Positions 2,003 to 23,322 are shown, numbered from the stretch's first letter. The stretch is DNA of 64,000 nt from Moorellales bacterium (GCA_049719955.1 JBNARC010000008.1:26131-90130), one strand, 5' to 3'. A program made the numbers and translations. Notes: a model not told the origin generated them from the sequence alone.

Positions 2003-2938
2003 ATGGAACCGGAATTGCAAACCCGCTCCGCCGTTAAAGCCCGGCGGCGACTGCGGGTGTGGCCGTTAATAGTACTGCTGGCGCTGGCGTTTTTTGCCTC
2101 CGGCGGCCTGGGCTACTACCTGGCCAGTGTTTCTTCACTTTCACCCCTGGTAGTGCCCATTCCGGGGGTAACCAACCGTCCGCAGCCCATGAACCTGTTG
2201 GTGTTGGGGGTGGACCGGCGAGAAACCGAAAGGGGTAGGGCGGATACCTTAATGTTGGTGTTTTTGGATCCGGCTGCCGGTCGGGTGGGAGTCCTTTCCC
2301 TGCCGCGGGATACTTACGTGGTGGTACCCGGGCACGGTCGAACCAAGCTGGCCCACGCCCACGCCTACGGCGGACCGGAATTGGCTGTGGAAACCGTGGA
2401 GGGCCTGTTGGGAGTGCCGGTAGATCATTACCTGGAGGTAGACTTCGCCAGCTTCGTTAGGCTGGTAGACCTTTTGGGCGGAGTAGAAATTGAGGTTCCC
2501 CAGCGCATGTACTACCCACCGGAGGGGATTGACCTCAAGCCCGGTCGACAGCGGCTTAACGGGGAGGACGCCCTGGCTCTGGTACGCTTCCGCAACTATC
2601 CCGAGGGCGACATCGGTCGCATTCGTCAGCAGCAGCGTTTCCTTCTGGCCCTTATGGATCAGATGGTAAGCCTGCGCGGGGTCCTAAAGTCGCCCCAGTT
2701 ACTCCAGGAGCTGTACGGACTGGTAAAGACCGACCTTTCCTGGACGGAGTTGCTCTCCCTGGCCAAAGTATTCTCCGATCTGGAGGGTAGCCACCTCTCG
2801 CTTGCCCTTCTACCCGGCACCCCCGATTACATTAACGGGGTGAGCTATTGGATCCCGGATACCGAGCGGCTTCGCTCCACCCTGGCGGAATTGCAAAACC
2901 CGCCTACTGCCAACCAGGCCCAGGCCAAGGAACCGTGA
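2003..2938 (+). CDS. LytR-CpsA-Psr (LCP) family cell-wall polymer transferase
   Basis: ORF track. N-terminal TM anchor, then LLVLGVDRRETERGRADTLMLVFLD and LSLPRDTYV, which are typical LCP core motifs. Confidence 0.85.
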   Translation: MEPELQTRSAVKARRRLRVWPLIVLLALAFFASGGLGYYLASVSSLSPLVVPIPGVTNRPQPMNLLVLGVDRRETERGRADTLMLVFLDPAAGRVGVLSLPRDTYVVVPGHGRTKLAHAHAYGGPELAVETVEGLLGVPVDHYLEVDFASFVRLVDLLGGVEIEVPQRMYYPPEGIDLKPGRQRLNGEDALALVRFRNYPEGDIGRIRQQQRFLLALMDQMVSLRGVLKSPQLLQELYGLVKTDLSWTELLSLAKVFSDLEGSHLSLALLPGTPDYINGVSYWIPDTERLRSTLAELQNPPTANQAQAKEP

Positions 2939-3026
2939 GGACGTAGTAGTGAAGCCGGCGCACCTCCAGGCCTTAGGCGGTACCGCTTGCCAGCCCAGAA
3001 TTAGGGACAACTCAGGGGGGAAGGAG

Positions 3027-3791
3027 TTGGCTACGGCAGATATTCTGGGGGTCCGGGTGGACGTCTGCAGCCTGGAAGAGGCGGTGGACCGGGTGGCCCG
3101 GCTAATACGCCAGGGCGGGCACCACCAGGTGGTAACCGCCAACGCGGAAATGGTGTGGCGGGCCTGGCGCGAGGAAACCTTCGCCCGAGTGCTGGCGGAG
3201 GCGGCCCTGGTCACCGCCGACGGCGTAGGGGTGCTCTGGGCGGCCCGGCGTTTGGGGCAACCGTCGCTGGCCCAGGTGGCGGGCATAGACCTGGTGTGGG
3301 CCCTGGCCCGCCGCGGGGCCCGAGAAGGGTGGCGGTTTTTTCTCTTCGGGGCCCGGCCGGGGGTGGCAGAGGCCGCAGCCGAGGAACTGCGCCGACATCA
3401 CCCCGGGGTTCAGATAGCCGGCGTGGCCCACGGCTACCAGACCCCCGAGGGTGAGGAGGCGGTAAAAGCCGCCATCCGCTCGACCCGGCCCCAGGTGCTT
3501 CTGGTGGGTATGGGCTCCCCCAAGCAAGAGTATTGGATTGCCAGGAATCTTCCCGAGCTGGGGGTGCCGGTGGCCGTAGGAATAGGGGGCAGTCTGGACG
3601 TATTGGCCGGGAAGTCCCGGCGGGCGCCGGAGTGGGTAAGAAGGCGGGGCCTGGAGTGGCTCTATCGCCTGGTTCGCGAACCTCGGCGTTGGCGACGTCA
3701 AAGCGTGCTTCCCGCCTTTGCCTGGCGGGTTTTTTGGGCCGGCCTCCGGCCGGGCGGCAGGAAAAACCGTATAGGGCATAGAACTCGCTAG
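3027..3791 (+). CDS. WecB/TagA/CpsF family glycosyltransferase
   Basis: ORF 2949..3791. TTG 3027 preferred because the conserved N-terminus ILGVRVD starts just after it and a G-rich RBS lies upstream. Motif GMGSPKQEYWI. Confidence 0.8.
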   Translation: MATADILGVRVDVCSLEEAVDRVARLIRQGGHHQVVTANAEMVWRAWREETFARVLAEAALVTADGVGVLWAARRLGQPSLAQVAGIDLVWALARRGAREGWRFFLFGARPGVAEAAAEELRRHHPGVQIAGVAHGYQTPEGEEAVKAAIRSTRPQVLLVGMGSPKQEYWIARNLPELGVPVAVGIGGSLDVLAGKSRRAPEWVRRRGLEWLYRLVREPRRWRRQSVLPAFAWRVFWAGLRPGGRKNRIGHRTR

Positions 3792-3859
3792 TAGGCAATA
3801 GTGGCCTCCGGGACTGCGCTACTACCTCGGTCAGGTCGGGCCCGGAAAGGGAGAGATAA

Positions 3860-4294
3860 GTGTACCGTCCGATTCTGGTAAGGGTTCGCGGGACGCAGGT
3901 AAAGGGACCGGGAGAGGAGGACAGCATAGAGCTGGTTACCGAGGGTCGGCTGTACCGGCGGGAATGCTCCTACTACATCCTTTACCAAGAGAGTTGCCTT
4001 ACCGGGCTGGAGGGCACTCTTACTTCTCTAAAAATTGAGCCCACTCGGGTAGTGCTCAACCGTATCGGGGGAACCAGTCAACGTCAAAGCTTTGAGGAGG
4101 GGGTCTGGCATCAGAGCTACTATGTGACCCCTTACGGAGTGTTGCGGGTGGGGGTGATGCCGTCGCGGGTAGACGTTGACTTGACAGAGAGCGGGGGAAG
4201 CATTAACCTAGAGTATGAATTGCAGATCGAACAGGAGAAGGTAAGCGACAATCGGCTGCTGATTACCGTTCAACGTTTGGAGACCGGTGCATGA
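3860..4294 (+). CDS. DUF1934-like small beta-barrel protein
   Basis: 144-aa ORF with RBS AAGGGAGAG. Its stop overlaps the argS start (ATGA), the usual Firmicute DUF1934-argS arrangement. Confidence 0.65.
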   Translation: MYRPILVRVRGTQVKGPGEEDSIELVTEGRLYRRECSYYILYQESCLTGLEGTLTSLKIEPTRVVLNRIGGTSQRQSFEEGVWHQSYYVTPYGVLRVGVMPSRVDVDLTESGGSINLEYELQIEQEKVSDNRLLITVQRLETGA

Positions 4295-5973
4295 ACCTGC
4301 TGAGCCAGATCGCAGCCAAAATCAAGTCGGCGCTGGCGGAAGCGGCGCTGGAGGCGCGAAAGCGGGGGGAGGTAAAGTTTGACCGCCTCCCGGAATTCAC
4401 GGTGGAGGTGCCCAGAGAAAGAGATCACGGGGACCTGGCTACCAACCTGGCTTTGGTGCTGGCCCGCGGGGCCGGCCGGCCGCCCCGAGAAGTGGCGGAC
4501 AGCGTCCTCTGCCACCTAAACCTTACCGGTACCTGGGTGCACCGGACGGAGGTTGCCGGGCCGGGCTTTATTAATTTTTGGCTGGACCCGAGCTGGCTCT
4601 ACCAGGTACCGGGATTGGTAGAAGCCCAAGGGGACCGCTGGGGTAACAGCCACCTGGGGGCGGGTGTGAAGGTTCAGGTGGAATTCGTCAGCGCTAACCC
4701 CACCGGGCTGTTGCATATGGGTAATGCCCGGGGGGCGGCCCTGGGAGATACTCTGGCCAACCTCCTGGCCGCGGCCGGATACGAGGTAACCCGAGAGTAT
4801 TATATCAACGATGCCGGCCATCAGATCGAGACTTTTGCCCTGTCTCTGGAAGCCCGGTACTTGCAGTTGTTCGGGCGGGAAGCGCCGCTGCCGGAGGAAG
4901 GCTACCACGGCGAGGATTTGGTGGACACGGTGCGGGACTTTGCCGCCCGTTACGGCGATCGCTATCTTACGAGCCCCCCCGAGGAGCGGCGCCAGGCGCT
5001 GGTGGATTTTGCCCTCCAGGAGAAGCTAGCCGGCATCCGCCGGTCGCTGGAACGCTTCGGAGTGCGATACGACGTTTGGTTTAGCGAGCAAAGCCTGCAC
5101 TCGCGGGGGCTGGTAGGGGATACCCTGGCCGAACTCGAACGGCGGGGTTATCTTTACCGCCAGGACGGAGCGGTATGGTTTAGGGCTTCGGCCTTGGCCA
5201 AGGCCAAGGACGAGGTGGTGGTGCGTTCCTCAGGAGTACCGACTTACTTTGCCGCCGATATCGCCTACCACGTCGATAAGTTCGCCCGCGGCTTTGACCG
5301 GGTGATCAACATCTGGGGGGCCGACCATCACGGGCATGTAGGGCGGCTTAAGGCGGCTCTGGCCGCCCTGGGTTACGATCCGGAGCGGTTGACGGTCATC
5401 CTGATGCAGCTGGTGCGCCTGTTCCAAGGCGGCGAACTGTTGCGCATGTCCAAGCGTACGGGGCAATACGTTACTCTAGACGAGCTGCTGGACGAAGTAG
5501 GCAAGGACGCGGCCCGCTATTTTTTCCTGCTCCGCAGTGCCGACAGCCACCTGGATTTTGATCTGGACCTGGCCAAGAGCCAGTCCGAGGAAAATCCGGT
5601 CTACTACGTGCAGTACGCTCACGCCCGTATTGCCAGCATATTAAGGCACGCCCGGGCGGAAGGTTATGAGGTTCCACCGGCAGGCGCGGCCAATCTGCGG
5701 CTATTGACCCATCCGGCGGAAGTGGAGCTCTTGCGCAAAATCGCCGAGTGGCCCGGCGTGGTGGAAACCGCCGCCCGCAATCTGGAGCCGCACCGGCTGC
5801 CCTACTACGCGCACGAGCTGGCTTCGATATTTCACCGGTTCTACACCCAGTGCCGGGTGCTGCACCCGGATCCCGAGCTGCGGGGCGCCCGGCTGGTGCT
5901 GGTCAAGATTACCCGGATAACCCTGGCCCGGGTTCTTAACCTAATGGGGGTTACCGCTCCGGAAAGCATGTGA
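4291..5973 (+). CDS. argS: arginine--tRNA ligase
   Basis: 560 aa. Class I signature GLLHMGNARG, KMSKS-like MSKRTG, and a DALR anticodon-binding C-terminus ending ...GVTAPESM. Confidence 0.95.
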   Translation: MNLLSQIAAKIKSALAEAALEARKRGEVKFDRLPEFTVEVPRERDHGDLATNLALVLARGAGRPPREVADSVLCHLNLTGTWVHRTEVAGPGFINFWLDPSWLYQVPGLVEAQGDRWGNSHLGAGVKVQVEFVSANPTGLLHMGNARGAALGDTLANLLAAAGYEVTREYYINDAGHQIETFALSLEARYLQLFGREAPLPEEGYHGEDLVDTVRDFAARYGDRYLTSPPEERRQALVDFALQEKLAGIRRSLERFGVRYDVWFSEQSLHSRGLVGDTLAELERRGYLYRQDGAVWFRASALAKAKDEVVVRSSGVPTYFAADIAYHVDKFARGFDRVINIWGADHHGHVGRLKAALAALGYDPERLTVILMQLVRLFQGGELLRMSKRTGQYVTLDELLDEVGKDAARYFFLLRSADSHLDFDLDLAKSQSEENPVYYVQYAHARIASILRHARAEGYEVPPAGAANLRLLTHPAEVELLRKIAEWPGVVETAARNLEPHRLPYYAHELASIFHRFYTQCRVLHPDPELRGARLVLVKITRITLARVLNLMGVTAPESM

Positions 5974-17596: not shown

Positions 17597-18922
17597 ATGC
17601 TTTCCTTGCAGGCCAGCGAGCTGGAAGGTAAGACGGTTGCCGAATTATATCGTATGGCCCGGGAACTGAACATTCCGGGGTATTACCGGTTACGAAAGAA
17701 GGAGTTGATTGAAGAAATCCTTAAGCTCAAATCCGAGAAGAACGAAGAGGTCAAAGCGGAGAAGAACGAGGTCGCCAAGGTCACGGCGGAAAGAAACCAC
17801 CTCTACGCTCAAGGGGTGCTGGAGATACTGCCGGAAGGGTACGGTTTTCTCCGACCGGTAAACTACCTTCCCAGCGAAGGCGACATTTACGTTTCCCCTT
17901 CCCAAATCCGGAGATTGGATCTGCGCACCGGCGATCTGGTAGGGGGCCAGATTCGGCCTCCCAAGGAAGGAGAGCGCTTCAGCGCCCTCTTGCGGGTGGA
18001 AAGCATCAACGGGGTGCCGCCGGAACAGGTAACCCGCCGGCTCTCCTTCGATGCCCTTACCCCCATCTTCCCTACCGAGCGCCTCACCCTGGAAACCCCG
18101 GACGCGGATATTTCCTGCCGCATGATCGACCTGATCGCTCCGCTGGGCAAGGGGCAGCGCGGTTTGATTGTGGCTCCGCCTAAGGCCGGCAAGACCGTTC
18201 TCCTGAAGAAGATCGCCAACGCCATTGCCCACAATTATCCCGAGGTAATCTTGATGATACTGCTCATCGACGAGCGCCCGGAAGAGGTTACCGATATGGA
18301 GCGCTCGGTGCGGGCGGAAGTGATCAGCTCCACCTTTGATCAGCCTCCGGAGAACCACGTGCGGGTGGCGGATATGGTGCTGGAGCGGGCCAAGCGCCTG
18401 GTGGAGCAGAAGAAAGACGTAGTTATCCTTATGGACAGCATTACCCGCCTGGCCCGCGCCCACAACCTAGTAGTACCTCCTAGCGGCCGCACCCTTTCCG
18501 GAGGTGTGGATCCGGCGGCCCTGCACAAACCTAAACGCTTTTTCGGAGCCGCCCGCAATGTGGAGGAAGGCGGTAGCCTCACCATAGTGGCCACCGCCCT
18601 GGTAGAGACCGGCAGCCGCATGGATGACGTAATCTTTGAAGAGTTTAAGGGTACCGGCAATATGGAACTGATTCTCGATCGTCGGTTGGCCGAGCGACGC
18701 ATTTTCCCGGCCATAGACGTAAAGCGTTCCGGTACCCGGCGGGAGGAGGCGTTACTCAGCCCGGAGGAGCTAGAGCTGATGTGGCACTTCCGGCGCGAAA
18801 CCAATGCCCTCAGTACGGTGGAAGTGACCGAGATGCTCATCGATGCCCTGCGTAAGACCCGGTCGAACCGGGACCTACTGCGGGCTTTACCCCACTTCTT
18901 CCCGGAAACCGCTCGTCTATAG
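17597..18922 (+). CDS. rho: transcription termination factor Rho
   Basis: Rho N-terminal domain ([13 protein letters not shown]), cold-shock-like RNA-binding domain, Walker [25 protein letters not shown]. Confidence 0.95.
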
Positions 18923-19020: not shown

Positions 19021-19224
19021 ATGAAGAAGGGGATTCATCCGCCTTATCAGAAGGCGCGGATAATCTGCGCCTGCGGCAACGTGATCGAGACCCGTTCCAC
19101 CAAGAAGGAAATGCACGTGGAAGTCTGTTCGCGCTGCCATCCCTTCTACACCGGGTCCCGTCAACAGGTGATCGTAGAGCGGGGCGGGCAGGTGGAGAAG
19201 TTCCGAAAGAAGTATGGGGTTTGA
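19021..19224 (+). CDS. rpmE: 50S ribosomal protein L31 (zinc-binding type)
   Basis: MKKGIHP..., with Cys pairs CACGN and [10 protein letters not shown]. Confidence 0.95.
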
Positions 19225-20245
19225 AAGCTTGGCCAAGCCCATTGGGCGGAGCGCGAGCTCTGCTTTTTTCTTTTCTCTGCCGCGGCCCCAGGCCTTCGCC
19301 TACGGCGGGCAGGCGGTCATTGAGGGAGTGATGATGCGCGGCCCCCGGAGTTTTGCCGTGGCCGTGCGCCGGGGAGACGGGAGCATACTGGTTGACCGTC
19401 AGCTTCTTCCGGCCTGGGCGGCGCGTCGGGGGCCGGGAGGCTGGCCGCTGGTGCGCGGGGTGCTGGCTCTGGTGGAGGCGCTGGTGCTGGGCATCCGGGT
19501 GCTAAGCTTTTCCGCCGGCGTGGCGGCCGAGGGAGAGGGCGAGGAGCTGGGCAGGGGAGAAATGGCCTTGGCCCTCCTGCTGGCGGTGGGCCTGGCGGTG
19601 GGCCTGTTTGTGGTCCTACCCGCCCTGGCGGGGCACTGGAGTGCCGTCCGGCTCGGCCCTTGGGGCCAGAACCTCCTCGAGGGCGGCCTGCGTCTGGCGG
19701 TTTTCCTGGGTTATCTGGCGGCCATTGCCCGGTTGCAGGAAGTGCGCACCCTCTTTGCTTATCACGGGGCGGAGCACAAAGTGATCCACTGCTGGGAGGC
19801 AGGCGCCGGGCTGGATCCCGTGGCGGCCCAGGCCTTTCCCCGTTTGCACCCCCGGTGCGGCACCAGCTTCGTCCTTTTGGTAATGCTGGTGGCAGTCCTG
19901 CTTTATTCGCTTATTCCCGTATCCGGCCTCGCCGTCAGAATGGCGGTGCGGGTGGGGTTGCTTCCCCTGGTGGCCGGTTTGAGCTACGAGGTCTTGCGTT
20001 GGTCGGCGCGGTTACAGGACCGCTGGCCGGTAAGAATGCTCATCGCTCCGGGTTTGGGGCTACAGAAGATGACCACCCGCGAGCCCGATCGGGACCAACT
20101 GGAGGTAGCCGCAGCCGCCCTGGAGGCGGTACTGGCGGATGAGAATTCGGACGGAACTAAGGAGGTTTGCGACGGCCGTCCTTCTCGGCCCGGCTGTACG
20201 GAGCCAGGGGCGGCAGGAGAATCCGGCAGGGCTTCCGGGAGCTGA
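19214..20245 (+). CDS. DUF1385 family membrane protein
   Basis: [33 protein letters not shown]. The start is uncertain because a weak rpmE terminator-like hairpin and T-run lie at about 19246..19270. About 33 aa of non-conserved-looking C-terminal tail. Confidence 0.8.
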
Positions 20246-20251
20246 TAAGGG

Positions 20252-21940
20252 ATGCCGAAGAAGCAGGAGAAGGACAAATTTAGCTTTACCGTATGCGGGG
20301 AATTTTTTCCGGAAGTCTATCCCACCTCCCGGTCTTCCAGGTGGAGCCGCGGCGAAGAGGATCCCCTGGCGACGGAGATGCGTCTTTTCTCTGCCTGCCT
20401 GCGGTGGGCCTTTAATCGGCTTCTGGAAGGCGGTTCCCGCGATGAGATCAAGAAGCTCGGCCAGGAGCTTTTCGGGCTGAACTCCCGGTATGCAGACGAC
20501 GCGCGGCTTAAAGCAAAGGCCCTGCTGGACTCCCAGAAGGAGCTTCTGGAGCTGGAGATTGAGGAAACGGAGAAGAAACTGGGCCGGGCAAGGCAAAAAC
20601 TTGGCCTGGCCGCTAAGAAACTGGCCAGGGCCGAAAAGAAAGGTGTGGCTCCTGCCGAGCTGGAGAAGCTACGCCTTGCGGTCAGAGGCCGCCAGATGCG
20701 TGTGGCTTCTCTGGAGAGAAAGCTTTTCGAGCTAAAAGTTTACCGCCGGGACGGCGCCATACCCAAGGTGGTCTTCGGTGGCAAGAGGTTGTGGAAGAAA
20801 GTCTGCAAAGGCCGGGCCACACGGGAGGAGTGGCGGGCGGCCCGCCAAAACCGCCTCTACTGCCGGGGGGACGAGACCAAGGGCGGCAACGCGAACATAA
20901 AGGTCACTTACCGGGAGGGGGAGTTCTACCTGGCGGTAACCGTTTCCCACCTCTCGGAGAAGGTGGGCGAAGACAAACTCAACCGCCCCAGGATGAGCCG
21001 CGCCCCCAGGGTGGAGGGCAGGTTGTGGCTGCCAGAGAAACACCGGGACTTGGTGCGGGTTTGGCTGGCCATGAAGCTGCCCTACACGGTAGAGCTGGTC
21101 CGCACCCTGGAGGGCCGCTATATAGGGCATCTGACCTTTGATTTGGGCACCATACGGGAACCCGACTTTGCCAAAGGTTGTTTAGCCCTGGACACCAACC
21201 CTGACGGGGTGGGCTTATGTAACGTGAACGTTTCGGGCCAGCCGGAGCCGTGGCCGGAAGGCTTCAGTGTCCCCTACCCCGGCAGCCTGGGCAAGTACCA
21301 AGGAGAGTTTCAGGTCATCACCTATCCTAACGGTTTTCTGTATATCCGAGTGCCCGATCTCGCCTACACTTCCGGCTTCCGGAGGGACTACCTGATAGGC
21401 GTCTTAGCCCAAGTGGTGGTAGGCATAGCGTTCTCTTTGGGCAAGCCAATAGCCCTAGAGGACCTGGACTTCGGCAAAGACCGGCTGGACACCGACAAGA
21501 AATTCAACCGCGTGGCCGCAAACTTTCCCTTTGCCAGGATGGTGGAAGCCGTGTGCCGGAGGGCGGCCAGAGAAGGGGTGCCTTCCAAGCTCGTGGCTGC
21601 CCGGCACACCTCCACCATCGGGTACTGGAAGTACGCGAAGCGTTACGCCGTACCGGTGCACTGCGCGGCGGCGCTGGCTGTGGGCCGCCGGGCGATGGGC
21701 AGGAAAGAGCGGGTAACCAAAGAACTTAAACAACTGGTAGCCCGTATCAAGCAAGACCTGACCCAAAAGGTCAATCCTGATACGCCGGGGGAAGGAGAAG
21801 GGATGACCCGTGGGGTCAGGGCCGGCTTGAGGCGGCTGGAGGAAAGGCTCTTGCGGCATAACGGACTTACCCCGTGGCAGCAGGAGGCTTATACTTCCGT
21901 CTGGCGCGACTTAAAGCTTTTGGCCCTGTCCTTGCGGTGA
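20252..21940 (+). CDS. TnpB-related protein (IS200/IS605 OrfB-like RuvC-fold protein), non-canonical motif III, no zinc finger
   Basis: 562 aa. RuvC-I LALDTNPDG (Asp314). RuvC-II IALEDLDF (Glu403). TS-motif RHTSTIGYWKYAKRYAVPVHCAAALAVGRR, where His470 sits where TnpB has Asp and no CxxC pairs occur. Long helical insert at aa 84-165. Confidence 0.8.
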   Translation: MPKKQEKDKFSFTVCGEFFPEVYPTSRSSRWSRGEEDPLATEMRLFSACLRWAFNRLLEGGSRDEIKKLGQELFGLNSRYADDARLKAKALLDSQKELLELEIEETEKKLGRARQKLGLAAKKLARAEKKGVAPAELEKLRLAVRGRQMRVASLERKLFELKVYRRDGAIPKVVFGGKRLWKKVCKGRATREEWRAARQNRLYCRGDETKGGNANIKVTYREGEFYLAVTVSHLSEKVGEDKLNRPRMSRAPRVEGRLWLPEKHRDLVRVWLAMKLPYTVELVRTLEGRYIGHLTFDLGTIREPDFAKGCLALDTNPDGVGLCNVNVSGQPEPWPEGFSVPYPGSLGKYQGEFQVITYPNGFLYIRVPDLAYTSGFRRDYLIGVLAQVVVGIAFSLGKPIALEDLDFGKDRLDTDKKFNRVAANFPFARMVEAVCRRAAREGVPSKLVAARHTSTIGYWKYAKRYAVPVHCAAALAVGRRAMGRKERVTKELKQLVARIKQDLTQKVNPDTPGEGEGMTRGVRAGLRRLEERLLRHNGLTPWQQEAYTSVWRDLKLLALSLR

Positions 21941-22215
21941 CCCCGCTTAGCCGGTGTCGGGAAAAACCGGCAGGCGTCCTGACAGGACGCGGGAGGCGGG
22001 ACTAATTTCCCGCCGGAAGGCCAACACCGCCTGGCGGAAGCCTAAAGGTTCCCCGCTGTTAAGCGGCCCGTGCTGGTTGTGCCCTTCCGGCGAAGGCCTC
22101 CCGTCCGGGTGGGACTCCCGGGCCGAGGTCCCCTGTCGCCCTGCCCCCCGGGGGGCAAATCAAGTATCGGGAAGGAGGCGAAAGCCTGGTCTGGGGGCCG
22201 GCTTGGCTGGAGATA
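21941..22215 (+). ncRNA. candidate omega-RNA/reRNA-like structured transcript 3' of the tnpB-related gene
   Basis: At least 8 consecutive short GC-rich hairpins, for example 21974..21990, 21995..22014, 22053..22066, 22083..22096, 22105..22121, 22142..22157 and 22176..22187 (GAAA loop). The only ORF here is Arg-rich with no RBS. Confidence 0.3.
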
Positions 22216-22251
22216 AAAAACAGTCAAGTTTCTTGAACCAGGTGAGCAGGA

Positions 22252-23322
22252 GTGTGGGCTAAGCTGGAGGAGCTGGAATCCCGCTACGAAAACTTGAGCC
22301 GAGAACTGGCCGATCCGGCGATTATTGCCGATCCTGAGGCCTATCAGAAGCGGGCCCGGGCTCACGCCGAACTGGAGGAGATTGTGAGCACCTACCGCCG
22401 GTACAAGCGCGTGCGGCAGGAGATGGCCGAGGCCAGGCAGATCTTGGAGGAAGACGGGGATCGGGAACTGCGGGAACTGGCGGCCGCCGAGCTGGTGCGG
22501 TTGGAAGCCGAGGAAGAGGAACTAGAGCGCCGGCTCCGCCTGCTGCTCCTGCCCCGGGATCCTAACGACGAGAAGAACGTGATTATGGAGATCCGCGCCG
22601 GCGCCGGCGGGGAGGAGGCGGCGCTTTTCGCGGCCGATCTTTTCCGCATGTACAGCCGCTACGCCGAGGAAAAGGGCTGGCGGGTGGAACTGATAGACGT
22701 GCATCCCACGGAATTGGGCGGGTTTAAGGAAATCGTGTTCTCGGTGGACGGGCGGGGTGCCTACAGCCGCTTGAAGTTCGAGAGCGGGGTTCATCGGGTG
22801 CAGCGCATCCCGGTTACCGAGTCCGGCGGCCGCATTCATACCTCTACCGCCACGGTGGCGGTGCTTCCGGAGGCGGAGGAAGTGGAGGTGGAGATCGACC
22901 CCGAGGATCTGCGCATCGATACCTTCTGCTCCAGCGGACCAGGAGGGCAGTCGGTGAACACCACCAAGTCCGCGGTGCGCATTACCCACCTGCCCACCGG
23001 GCTGGTGGTCACCTGTCAGGACGAGAAATCACAGCACAAGAACAAGGAAAAGGCCCTGCGGGTGCTGCGGGCCCGGCTATTGGCCCTGGAGCAGGAGAAG
23101 CAGCAGAATGCGTTGGCCAGCGCCCGGCGTTCTCAGGTGGGAACCGGGGATCGCAGCGAGCGCATCCGCACCTATAACTTCCCTCAGGGTCGGGTTACCG
23201 ACCACCGCATCGGCCTTACCCTGCACAAATTGGACCAGGTGCTGGACGGAGATCTGGACGACATAATCGAGGTTCTGGTTACCACCGACCAGGCCGAGCG
23301 GCTGAAGGAAAGCGCCCTGTGA
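22252..23322 (+). CDS. prfA: peptide chain release factor 1
   Basis: N-terminus [15 protein letters not shown] tripeptide (RIPVTES), GGQ motif [12 protein letters not shown]. Confidence 0.95.

Follow-up and report, generated by a model that had tools for sequence, protein, structure and literature searches.

A hairpin-rich right end upstream of prfA in a Moorellales bacterium: a probable omega-RNA scaffold of a tnpA-deleted IS607-type element

Introduction

In CboIStron, the IS607 IStron of Clostridium botulinum, the transposase TnpA targets the motif that also serves TnpB as its target-adjacent motif (TAM; TGGG, in which GG is the core). The right end of the element (RE; UCGG) marks where the omega-RNA stops, and a mismatch upstream of the GG allows the RE to escape self-targeting (bioRxiv 10.1101/2023.11.20.567912). 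Here, we examine a stretch of 64,000 nucleotides (nt) from a Moorellales bacterium (GCA_049719955.1, JBNARC010000008.1:26131-90130), which as a whole will be referred to as the window, and in which a hairpin-dense, 311-nt tail separates a tnpB-like gene from the GTG start codon of prfA. We propose, with a probability of roughly 0.8, that this tail is the right end of an IS607-type element (20166-22242) from which most of tnpA has been deleted, and that it encodes an omega-RNA with a flanking guide for the TnpB-like protein.

Nety et al. (PMC10278001) have described omega-RNAs that arise by processing of the tnpB messenger RNA (mRNA) and have scaffolds of 79-466 nt, and the accessible part of that paper gives cleavage of double-stranded DNA among the rearranged TnpB clades as confirmed in RII-r5 only. 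One of the major clades, RIIIr-4, carries histidine in place of the RuvC-III aspartate and lacks the zinc finger; by Altae-Tran et al. (PNAS 2023, PMC10691335), it is regarded as probably active, an argument made from conservation.

Element boundaries and classification

Close homologues of the 562-amino acid (aa) TnpB-like protein (55-83% identity) number in the hundreds and come from thermophilic Bacillota, for example, Carboxydothermus, Ammonifex, Carboxydocella, Desulfofundulus, and Moorella, and several copies per genome are common. We fetched 78 loci encoding homologues, and the 41 loci that carry the tail in unrelated contexts were used to define the right end. In these 41 contexts, which represent many genera, a tail of ~300 nt starts directly after the stop codon of the tnpB-like gene (CCCCGTTTAGCCGG...) and ends at a near-invariant GAACCAGG (longer form TTTTTTGAACCAGG), corresponding to position 22242 of the window. 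The blastn similarity of the loci to the window spans 20177/20179 to 22242/22245 and then ends, and the right junction has an information content of 2.0 bits from -8 through -1 and of ~0 from +1 on.

An earlier interpretation, made from the letters of the window without database searches (the sequence-only reading), had suggested a test of whether homologous genes are followed by a conserved scaffold and then by a variable segment, and a sharp drop in conservation was found at 22242/22243. The same reading had ended the scaffold near 22210 and assigned the AT-rich segment from ~22211 to the prfA leader. This needs correction: 22211-22242 is kept in every homologous element and is, therefore, element DNA; the scaffold ends at 22242 with the AT-rich stretch included, and host DNA upstream of prfA is limited to 22243-22251. 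The features of the element and of its flanks are as follows.

20159-20165, plus strand: host AAGGAGG, the ancestral Shine-Dalgarno (SD) sequence of prfA and the target (TAM-like RGGAGG) to the left of the element; the motif is found in 28 of 30 left flanks and in the empty site of relatives
20166-20176, plus strand: probable left-end remnant TTTGCGACGGC (family consensus TTTGCAGCAGC), 8/11 identity in comparison with 29 full left ends
20179-20280, plus strand: remnant of IS607 tnpA, codons 182-215 of 215, overlapping the start of the tnpB-like gene (tblastn, 94% identity to residues 182-215 of the TnpA of locus L011)
20252-21940, plus strand: TnpB-related open reading frame (ORF), 562 aa, with RuvC residues D314, E403, and H470 and no C4 zinc finger (homologue alignment, hidden Markov models [HMMs], and fold)
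21941-22242, plus strand: right end of the element, a predicted omega-RNA scaffold of 302 nt with conserved 5' (1-60) and 3' (161-302) modules and a variable middle
22243-22262, plus strand: predicted guide and ancestral target TGAGCAGGAGTGTGGGCTAA, made up of 9 nt of prfA leader and the first prfA codons; conservation drops at +1
22252-23322, plus strand: prfA (release factor 1; Pfam PCRF and RF-1), which starts 9 nt past the element end

In most loci, the gene upstream of the tnpB-like gene encodes a 215-aa protein with a MerR-type helix-turn-helix and a resolvase catalytic domain (Pfam Resolvase and MerR). The TnpA of L011, a full-length relative, scores 197.5 bits against the NCBIfam equivalog NF033518, "IS607 family transposase" (cut-off 110), and its gene (2385-3032) overlaps the tnpB-like gene (3001-4689), an overlap that is retained in the window remnant. 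GG is present at both junctions, in all 30 left flanks and in all 41 distinct junctions compared, the window included. The full-length relatives thus show what is expected of the IS607 family: its TnpA, a GG core without target duplication, and overlapping tnpA and tnpB genes. The element is of the IS607 (serine recombinase) type and internally deleted, and does not have a classical IS200/IS605 end. As a side observation, L011 also carries a canonical zinc-finger TnpB (661-2064, 467 aa, CPLCG...CVAC) ~250 bp upstream of its IS607-type left end (~2319).

Since the window keeps codons 182-215 of tnpA only, its copy is a deleted, non-autonomous derivative, 2077 bp in length (20166-22242) as against ~2.67 kb in L011, with ~600 bp lost by internal deletion. 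At least ten other loci (L001, L004, L007, L008, L010, L012, L031, L039, L047, and L050) have a truncated or internally deleted tnpA and an intact tnpB-like ORF and tail, and non-autonomous derivatives appear to be common and maintained in this IS607-type family. No second copy of the tail, of tnpA, or of the tnpB-like gene was found elsewhere within the 64-kb window.

Full left ends start with TTTGCAGCAGCT..., ~66 nt ahead of the tnpA ATG. In L011 (2350-2384), as in other full copies, this end carries TTGACT-17 nt-TAATAT, terminating ~6 nt before the ATG, which looks like a promoter for a nearly leaderless tnpA mRNA. The motif is deleted in the window copy, and the tnpB-like gene there would, therefore, be dependent on operon read-through.

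Structure and covariation of the right end

All seven stem-loops of the sequence-only reading are present at their exact coordinates (21974-21990, 21995-22014, 22053-22066, 22083-22096, 22105-22121, 22142-22157, and 22176-22187), and the hairpin density of the tail is confirmed to be above chance. There are 11 perfect hairpin seeds with 5-bp stems, compared with 3.5 +/- 2.4 in dinucleotide shuffles (5/500 reach 11) and with a mean of 2.8 and a maximum of 10 in the 205 other 311-nt tiles of the window, all of which are topped by the tail. The minimum free energy of the plus strand is -157.1 kcal/mol (z = -3.07; 0/100 shuffles as stable), whereas the minus strand folds with z = -1.73.

Two of these local hairpins are not conserved among homologues. 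CCTTC/GAAGG (22083-22096) is displaced by a covarying long-range helix (22012-22020/22083-22091), and AGGC/GCCT (22176-22187) is in competition with the invariant terminal helix 22185-22190/22237-22242.

Structural conservation was assessed on an alignment of 42 tails, using an RNAalifold consensus and a window-derived structure constrained by its pairs and counted on the alignment; as controls, the 3' partner was slid by 1-3 columns and 500 shuffles were made. Across 104 pairs, 80.7% of the cells are paired as given, versus 35-50% when slid. Compensatory change is seen at 47 of the 104 pairs (24-32 when slid; shuffle mean 39.2, with 47 reached by 1/500 shuffles), and the covariation score is 0.226 versus 0.06-0.08, a value reached by 0/500 shuffles. 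In the supported helices, G.U cells outnumber A.C cells by 269 to 29; the folded strand is, therefore, the plus strand, and the pairing is that of RNA rather than of a DNA palindrome. The covariation is strong and strand-specific, and the helices and domains concerned are the following.

21950-21954 with 21967-21971, plus strand: helix P1, GCCGG/CCGGC, 99.5% of cells paired, with CCGGG/CCCGG variants in L042, L070, and L071
21974-21990, plus strand: hairpin GCGTCCT/AGGACGC, with compensatory changes in 19 and 16 sequences at two pairs (AU/UA/CG)
21995-22014, plus strand: hairpin GGCGGGA/TCCCGCC with a variable tip and 11-20 compensatory changes per pair
22012-22091, plus strand: long-range helix of GCCGGAAGG (22012-22020) with CCTTCCGGC (22083-22091), 7/7 pairs compensatory, enclosing the variable expansion segment
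22105-22121, plus strand: invariant hairpin CCGGG-N7-CCCGG within the best conserved core (CCGGGTGGGACTCCCGGGCCGAGG), with 98% pairing and almost no variation
22185-22242, plus strand: terminal domain, with the closing helix CCUGGU (22185-22190)/ACCAGG (22237-22242), invariant except in L075, and an inner stem

The long-range helix was found again by RNAalifold on an independent alignment, and a junction helix (alignment columns 76-77/248-249) has 11 compensatory sequences at each pair. The exception in the closing helix is itself a double compensatory change, L075 having CCAGGT/ACCTGG. Mean identity to the window is 80% for tail positions 1-60 and 77% for 161-302, compared with 67% for the ORF nucleotides and 49.5% for third codon positions; positions 61-160, at 45%, form a variable expansion segment in which hairpins are gained and lost. 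Lineage-specific expansion segments also occur elsewhere in the tail, as extra hairpins inside the 22105-22121 loop in L018 (2030-2110), L019, L032, and L043, and as an added hairpin within the subterminal stem.

RNAalifold also returned two pairings between the ORF and the tail (21836-21847/22230-22241 and 21900-21905/22122-22128), which were rejected: both sides are conserved, there is no compensatory support, and L075 breaks the first. Promoter and terminator prediction on the plus strand of the tail gave none, in agreement with a transcript that is shared with the tnpB-like gene and continues into prfA.

One must ask whether the right end could serve the recombinase as DNA and nothing else. 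The left-end TTGACTGT and right-end ACAGTCAA are inverted copies of each other (2350-2365 versus 4962-4977 in L011; 22202-22228 in the window) and are likely, as judged from their arrangement, to be TnpA binding sites; the last ~45 bp of the element, which are near-invariant, probably double as such predicted sites, and the presence of multiple TnpA sites at IS607 ends is known (PMC6188088). The inner subterminal stem, CTTGGCTG (22202-22209) with CAGTCAAG (22221-22228), shows 19-20 compensatory changes, and since the inverted motif coincides with this stem, its covariation may be at the DNA level; the stem may have both DNA-level and RNA-level roles. A tail consisting solely of DNA-level sites for the serine recombinase, with no functional RNA, is nonetheless unlikely, because conservation and covariation extend over 300 nt and well away from the terminus, nothing at the left end corresponds to the helices at 21950-22121, G.U so greatly exceeds A.C, and the variable hairpins come and go at fixed positions with their closing pairs retained.

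The TnpB-related protein

The sequence-only reading had called the upstream gene tnpB-related, and this holds at the level of predicted fold, although not at that of curated HMM thresholds (see below). Cas12 proteins (Cas12m, CasX, Cas12f, and others) account for every one of the 21 best PDB matches in a Foldseek search with the AlphaFold2 model, and E is 1e-5 for the best match and <= 1e-3 for the top eight; on this model, the protein is predicted to have a RuvC-containing TnpB/Cas12 fold. All 27 homologues in the alignment share D314 (DTNPDG) and E403 (ALEDL), and the RuvC-III position is an invariant histidine, H470 (VH[CH]AAAL). There are no cysteines, and hence no cysteine pairs, between HTSTIGYWKY and H470, the usual segment of the C4 zinc finger. 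Both hallmarks of RIIIr-4 are thus present in this family, which on these traits is a candidate member of that clade. In the window copy, the ORF is intact with all family-invariant residues, and the tail is intact as well.

Substitution of a catalytic residue should also bring to mind the TldR proteins (PMC10705468), a precedent for nuclease-dead TnpB relatives that have been domesticated as regulators. The prfA-adjacent copy could be such a regulator, with its guide RNA controlling prfA or the operon, and the change of the RuvC-III aspartate to histidine, the missing zinc finger, the loss of tnpA, and the position at an essential gene would all suit this. We consider it improbable, more so than a role as DNA alone, because the histidine is invariant throughout a multi-copy, TnpA-associated, and clearly mobile family, D314 and E403 are retained, and the closest relatives lack the gene entirely. 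Moreover, CCAGG, and not RGGAGG, stands ahead of the DNA that the guide would match in this genome, and the family has defined ends and a guide position that corresponds to its flank and not to a promoter elsewhere.

Target site and the empty site

Two closest relatives of the window, L079 (an NCBI assembly) and L080 (a JGI metagenome), have a prfA gene that is 93% identical and share the synteny rho-rpmE-DUF1385-prfA-prmC. Neither possesses the tnpB-like gene or the tail, and in both, DUF1385 overlaps prfA by 11 nt. Their empty-site junction, ...GGTGAGGAGG followed by TGAGCAGGAGTGTGGGCTAA... (written also as GAGGAGG followed by TGAGCAGG...), is the left flank of the window (...ACTAAGGAGG) joined to its right flank (TGAGCAGGAGTGTGGGCTAA...) without any duplication. 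Positions 22243-22262 match the bases after GAGGAGG in the uninterrupted L080 at 20/20, and the homology of the window to the empty site ends at 20165 on the left.

The tail immediately precedes prfA in the same orientation and has extensive structure, all of which would befit a leader or regulatory RNA (attenuator or riboswitch) of the host operon. The sequence-only reading had named the retention of the tail in relatives without the tnpB-like gene as the observation that would favor a prfA leader, and the opposite is seen: since L079 and L080 are without the tail and their DUF1385 overlaps prfA, the tail is not a prfA leader. With the tail also present behind tnpB-like genes beside unrelated host genes (valS, aspS, and aminotransferases) and no match in Rfam, this explanation is already contradicted and retains very little probability.

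The left flank ends in RGGAGG at 28 of 30 distinct junctions, 26 of them recognized by script and two (L006 and L016, AGGAGG) read by eye because the scripted position was 4 nt off where the left end contains GG. To the right, a long same-strand ORF starts 5-12 nt after the element in 29 of 41 loci, whereas control sites drawn from this host DNA have such a start in 10% of cases when every GG is counted and in 15% when RGGAGG is required (p ~1e-20 and 3e-15). Ten of these downstream ORFs were scanned with Pfam; all ten match families, and the domain mostly begins <= ~30 residues from the predicted start. The genes include those for valyl- and aspartyl-tRNA synthetases (valS and aspS), class-V aminotransferases, a pyrimidine-nucleoside phosphorylase, and a beta-CASP nuclease. 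Given the RGGAGG left flanks and the start codons 5-12 nt to the right, the family sits between SD sequence and start codon in the sense orientation; its excess over ordinary RGGAGG sites probably comes from the loss of insertions within genes. In L046 (~2850-2890), units resembling GGGAAGTG are repeated in a short tandem array in the host DNA left of the copy, and the array ends in the GGAGG target.

In the window, the element splits the ancestral SD of prfA (AAGGAGG/TGA). The present SD would be formed by the element's AGG and the host's TGA, giving AGGTGA (22240-22245), six nt before the GTG. A literature search for SD or GGAGG targeting by IS607 or TnpB found nothing relevant, nor did we find a published description of SD-site residence with an SD-restoring end in a zinc-finger-less TnpB lineage of the His type; coverage of the literature was incomplete, and this should not be taken as proof of novelty.

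Some IS607 elements are IStrons, and an element that lies within an operon upstream of an essential gene might be expected to splice itself out of host transcripts. The tail as the 3' part of a group I intron is, nevertheless, as remote a prospect as a prfA leader: neither the window nor eight full-length elements yielded a match to a group I intron at E <= 1, and the left end of full copies, lying only ~66 nt before tnpA, is too short for an intron core. Least probable of all is that the tail is coding, for although both the Arg-rich, 102-aa ORF with a GTG start reported by the sequence-only reading (21954-22262) and a minus-strand, 107-aa ORF (22042-22365) are open across it in the window, the tail lengths of the 41 loci are spread evenly over the residues mod 3 (17:12:12, with indels of every size), which excludes coding by the Arg-rich ORF, the helices are retained even though identity in the central 100 nt is only 45%, and the plus-strand ORF crosses the element boundary into unrelated host DNA.

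Proposed function

Because the tail travels with the tnpB-like gene in many copies, ends at a sharp boundary, covaries as RNA, and is missing from the empty site, the idea of an omega-RNA-type scaffold holds on comparative grounds. The omega-RNA interpretation of the sequence-only reading, with flanking prfA DNA as the guide, is thus partly supported: the predicted scaffold and guide stand, and the 3' anatomy and the type of element have been revised.

Several observations weigh against this interpretation, and these concern the protein first. The canonical D-E-D triad and C4 zinc finger are absent; the score against the NCBIfam model guided_TnpB (NF040570) is 57.9 bits (E = 1e-15) for a cut-off of 100, and the matches to TIGR01766 (26.7 bits, cut-off 32) and TIGR01765 are likewise sub-threshold. 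A scan of the 562-aa protein against a local copy of Pfam gave no match, and a sequence-profile search of PDB sequences returned coiled-coil noise only and no TnpB or Cas12. The AlphaFold2 model is of moderate quality (predicted local distance difference test score, 72) and poor at 460-485 around H470, and no active ortholog of the His-type clade is reported in the accessible text of PMC10691335 or PMC10278001. As for the RNA, its 5' end is not fixed by pairing evidence, since the ORF-tail pairings have no compensatory support, and the covariation of the subterminal stem could reflect co-evolving TnpA sites instead of RNA pairing. The search with covariance models, which the sequence-only reading had recommended, gave no family: Rfam 15, group I introns included, had no match in the tail at E <= 1 when a 12-kb region was scanned, none in eight full elements, and chance-level matches only with the tail alone.

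If the tail is an omega-RNA, we envisage that its transcript would form the 3' untranslated region of the tnpB-like mRNA, be processed, and fold into a multi-helix scaffold bound by the TnpB-like protein, with the bases from 22243 (roughly 16-20 nt) as the guide. The family would insert after RGGAGG by way of a GG crossover, with RGGAGG as the TAM, and since insertion would occur at that point, the guide would match the sequence behind the motif in the unoccupied site. Here, the ribonucleoprotein would recognize, and probably cut, the empty DUF1385-prfA junction (GGAGG followed by TGAGCAGGAGTG...), whereas the occupied site would be spared because its adjacent motif is CCAGG. In a full element, excision by TnpA would regenerate GGAGG and the guide target, and a cut by the ribonucleoprotein would favor re-copying of the element; the window copy would be immobile on its own. 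The scaffold, guide start, TAM, and self-protection of this scheme are proposed by analogy with CboIStron. With the terminal AGG replacing the split SD, prfA should still be translatable.

More tentatively, and as a possibility that we would not yet favor, the right end may be dual, one ~300-nt RNA being both the omega-RNA scaffold and the new 5' leader and ribosome binding site (RBS) of the downstream host gene. As the SD consensus RGGAGG is the recombination target and presumably the TAM, every guide would be a host translation-initiation region, in this case that of the essential prfA; and as the substitute SD (ACCAGG) is paired in the closing helix, guide-RNA maturation or TnpB binding and host translation would compete for a single transcript. 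Such an end would be a way of limiting damage to the host unlike IStron splicing, and the His-type, zinc-finger-less TnpBs with a G-rich, 5-6-nt TAM would become directly testable.

A TnpB guide RNA at a transposon end is expected biology. What the present analysis adds, for a TnpB lineage of the His type without a zinc finger, is a predicted scaffold of ~300 nt that is supported by covariation, together with RGGAGG as the predicted TAM. Insertion into housekeeping genes at the point between SD and start codon, with the element's own end resupplying the RBS, would be a distinct strategy for tolerable insertion into operons, and the translation start of the essential prfA in this genome would now be built on transposon RNA. 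Since the guide would match the wild-type allele of sister lineages, a model of homing or retention can be checked in natural populations.

Neighboring genes

The genes on the plus strand are, in order, rho (17597-18922), rpmE, a DUF1385 gene (19214-20245), the 562-aa ORF (20252-21940), prfA (22252-23322), and prmC. DUF1385 has lost its last seven codons (relatives end in ...GEEVSRGVG*; window 20132-20245), and its reading frame is now extended by 27 codons through the left-end and tnpA remnants to a TGA stop at 20243-20245. This stop lies 6 nt ahead of the tnpB-like ATG, and translational coupling is, therefore, possible. Within the coding region of rho (17813-17988), a weak, sub-threshold Rfam match to a truncated RNase P (23 bits, gathering threshold 60, E = 0.14) is almost certainly due to chance.

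Comparison with known systems

With ISDra2 and the IS200/IS605 elements, the locus shares an RNA (there termed reRNA) whose template is formed by the 3' end of tnpB and the right end of the element, a guide that corresponds to the flanking DNA, a structured scaffold with a helix next to the guide, and, as proposed here, retention by cutting of the empty site. Those elements, however, use a Y1 transposase and have ends that form hairpins in single-stranded DNA. Their TAM is rich in AT (TTGAT), their scaffold, ~100-150 nt in length, overlaps with the ORF, and their RuvC has the D-E-D triad together with a zinc finger. TldRs (PMC10705468) resemble the present protein in being TnpB relatives with an altered RuvC and a guide RNA encoded downstream, but they are immobilized, without transposase or ends, and their guides are directed to promoters elsewhere; the present family is found in multiple copies with TnpA and defined ends, and its predicted guide is the flank.

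The protein resembles RIIIr-4, in which, according to PMC10691335, the RuvC-III aspartate is likewise changed to histidine, the C4 zinc finger is absent, and the conservation of the alteration suggests retained activity. The members highlighted there are viral or associated with RHH/MazE, whereas ours are associated with a serine-recombinase TnpA in thermophilic Bacillota; neither an omega-RNA structure nor a TAM for RIIIr-4 is given in the accessible parts of PMC10691335 or PMC10278001.

Another close parallel is CboIStron, which has the same order of a serine-recombinase tnpA followed by tnpB, a GG core at both junctions, and, as is predicted here, a TnpA target that is also the TAM and a scaffold whose end is the right end; in both cases, the RE resembles the TAM but differs from it upstream of the GG (UCGG versus TGGG there, CCAGG versus GGAGG here). 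The present family differs in having no group I intron, RGGAGG in place of TGGG as its motif, and a 562-aa protein with D-E-H and no zinc finger. It differs further in its predicted scaffold of ~300 nt, which lies almost wholly past the stop codon, and in its residence between the SD sequence and the start codon of host genes.

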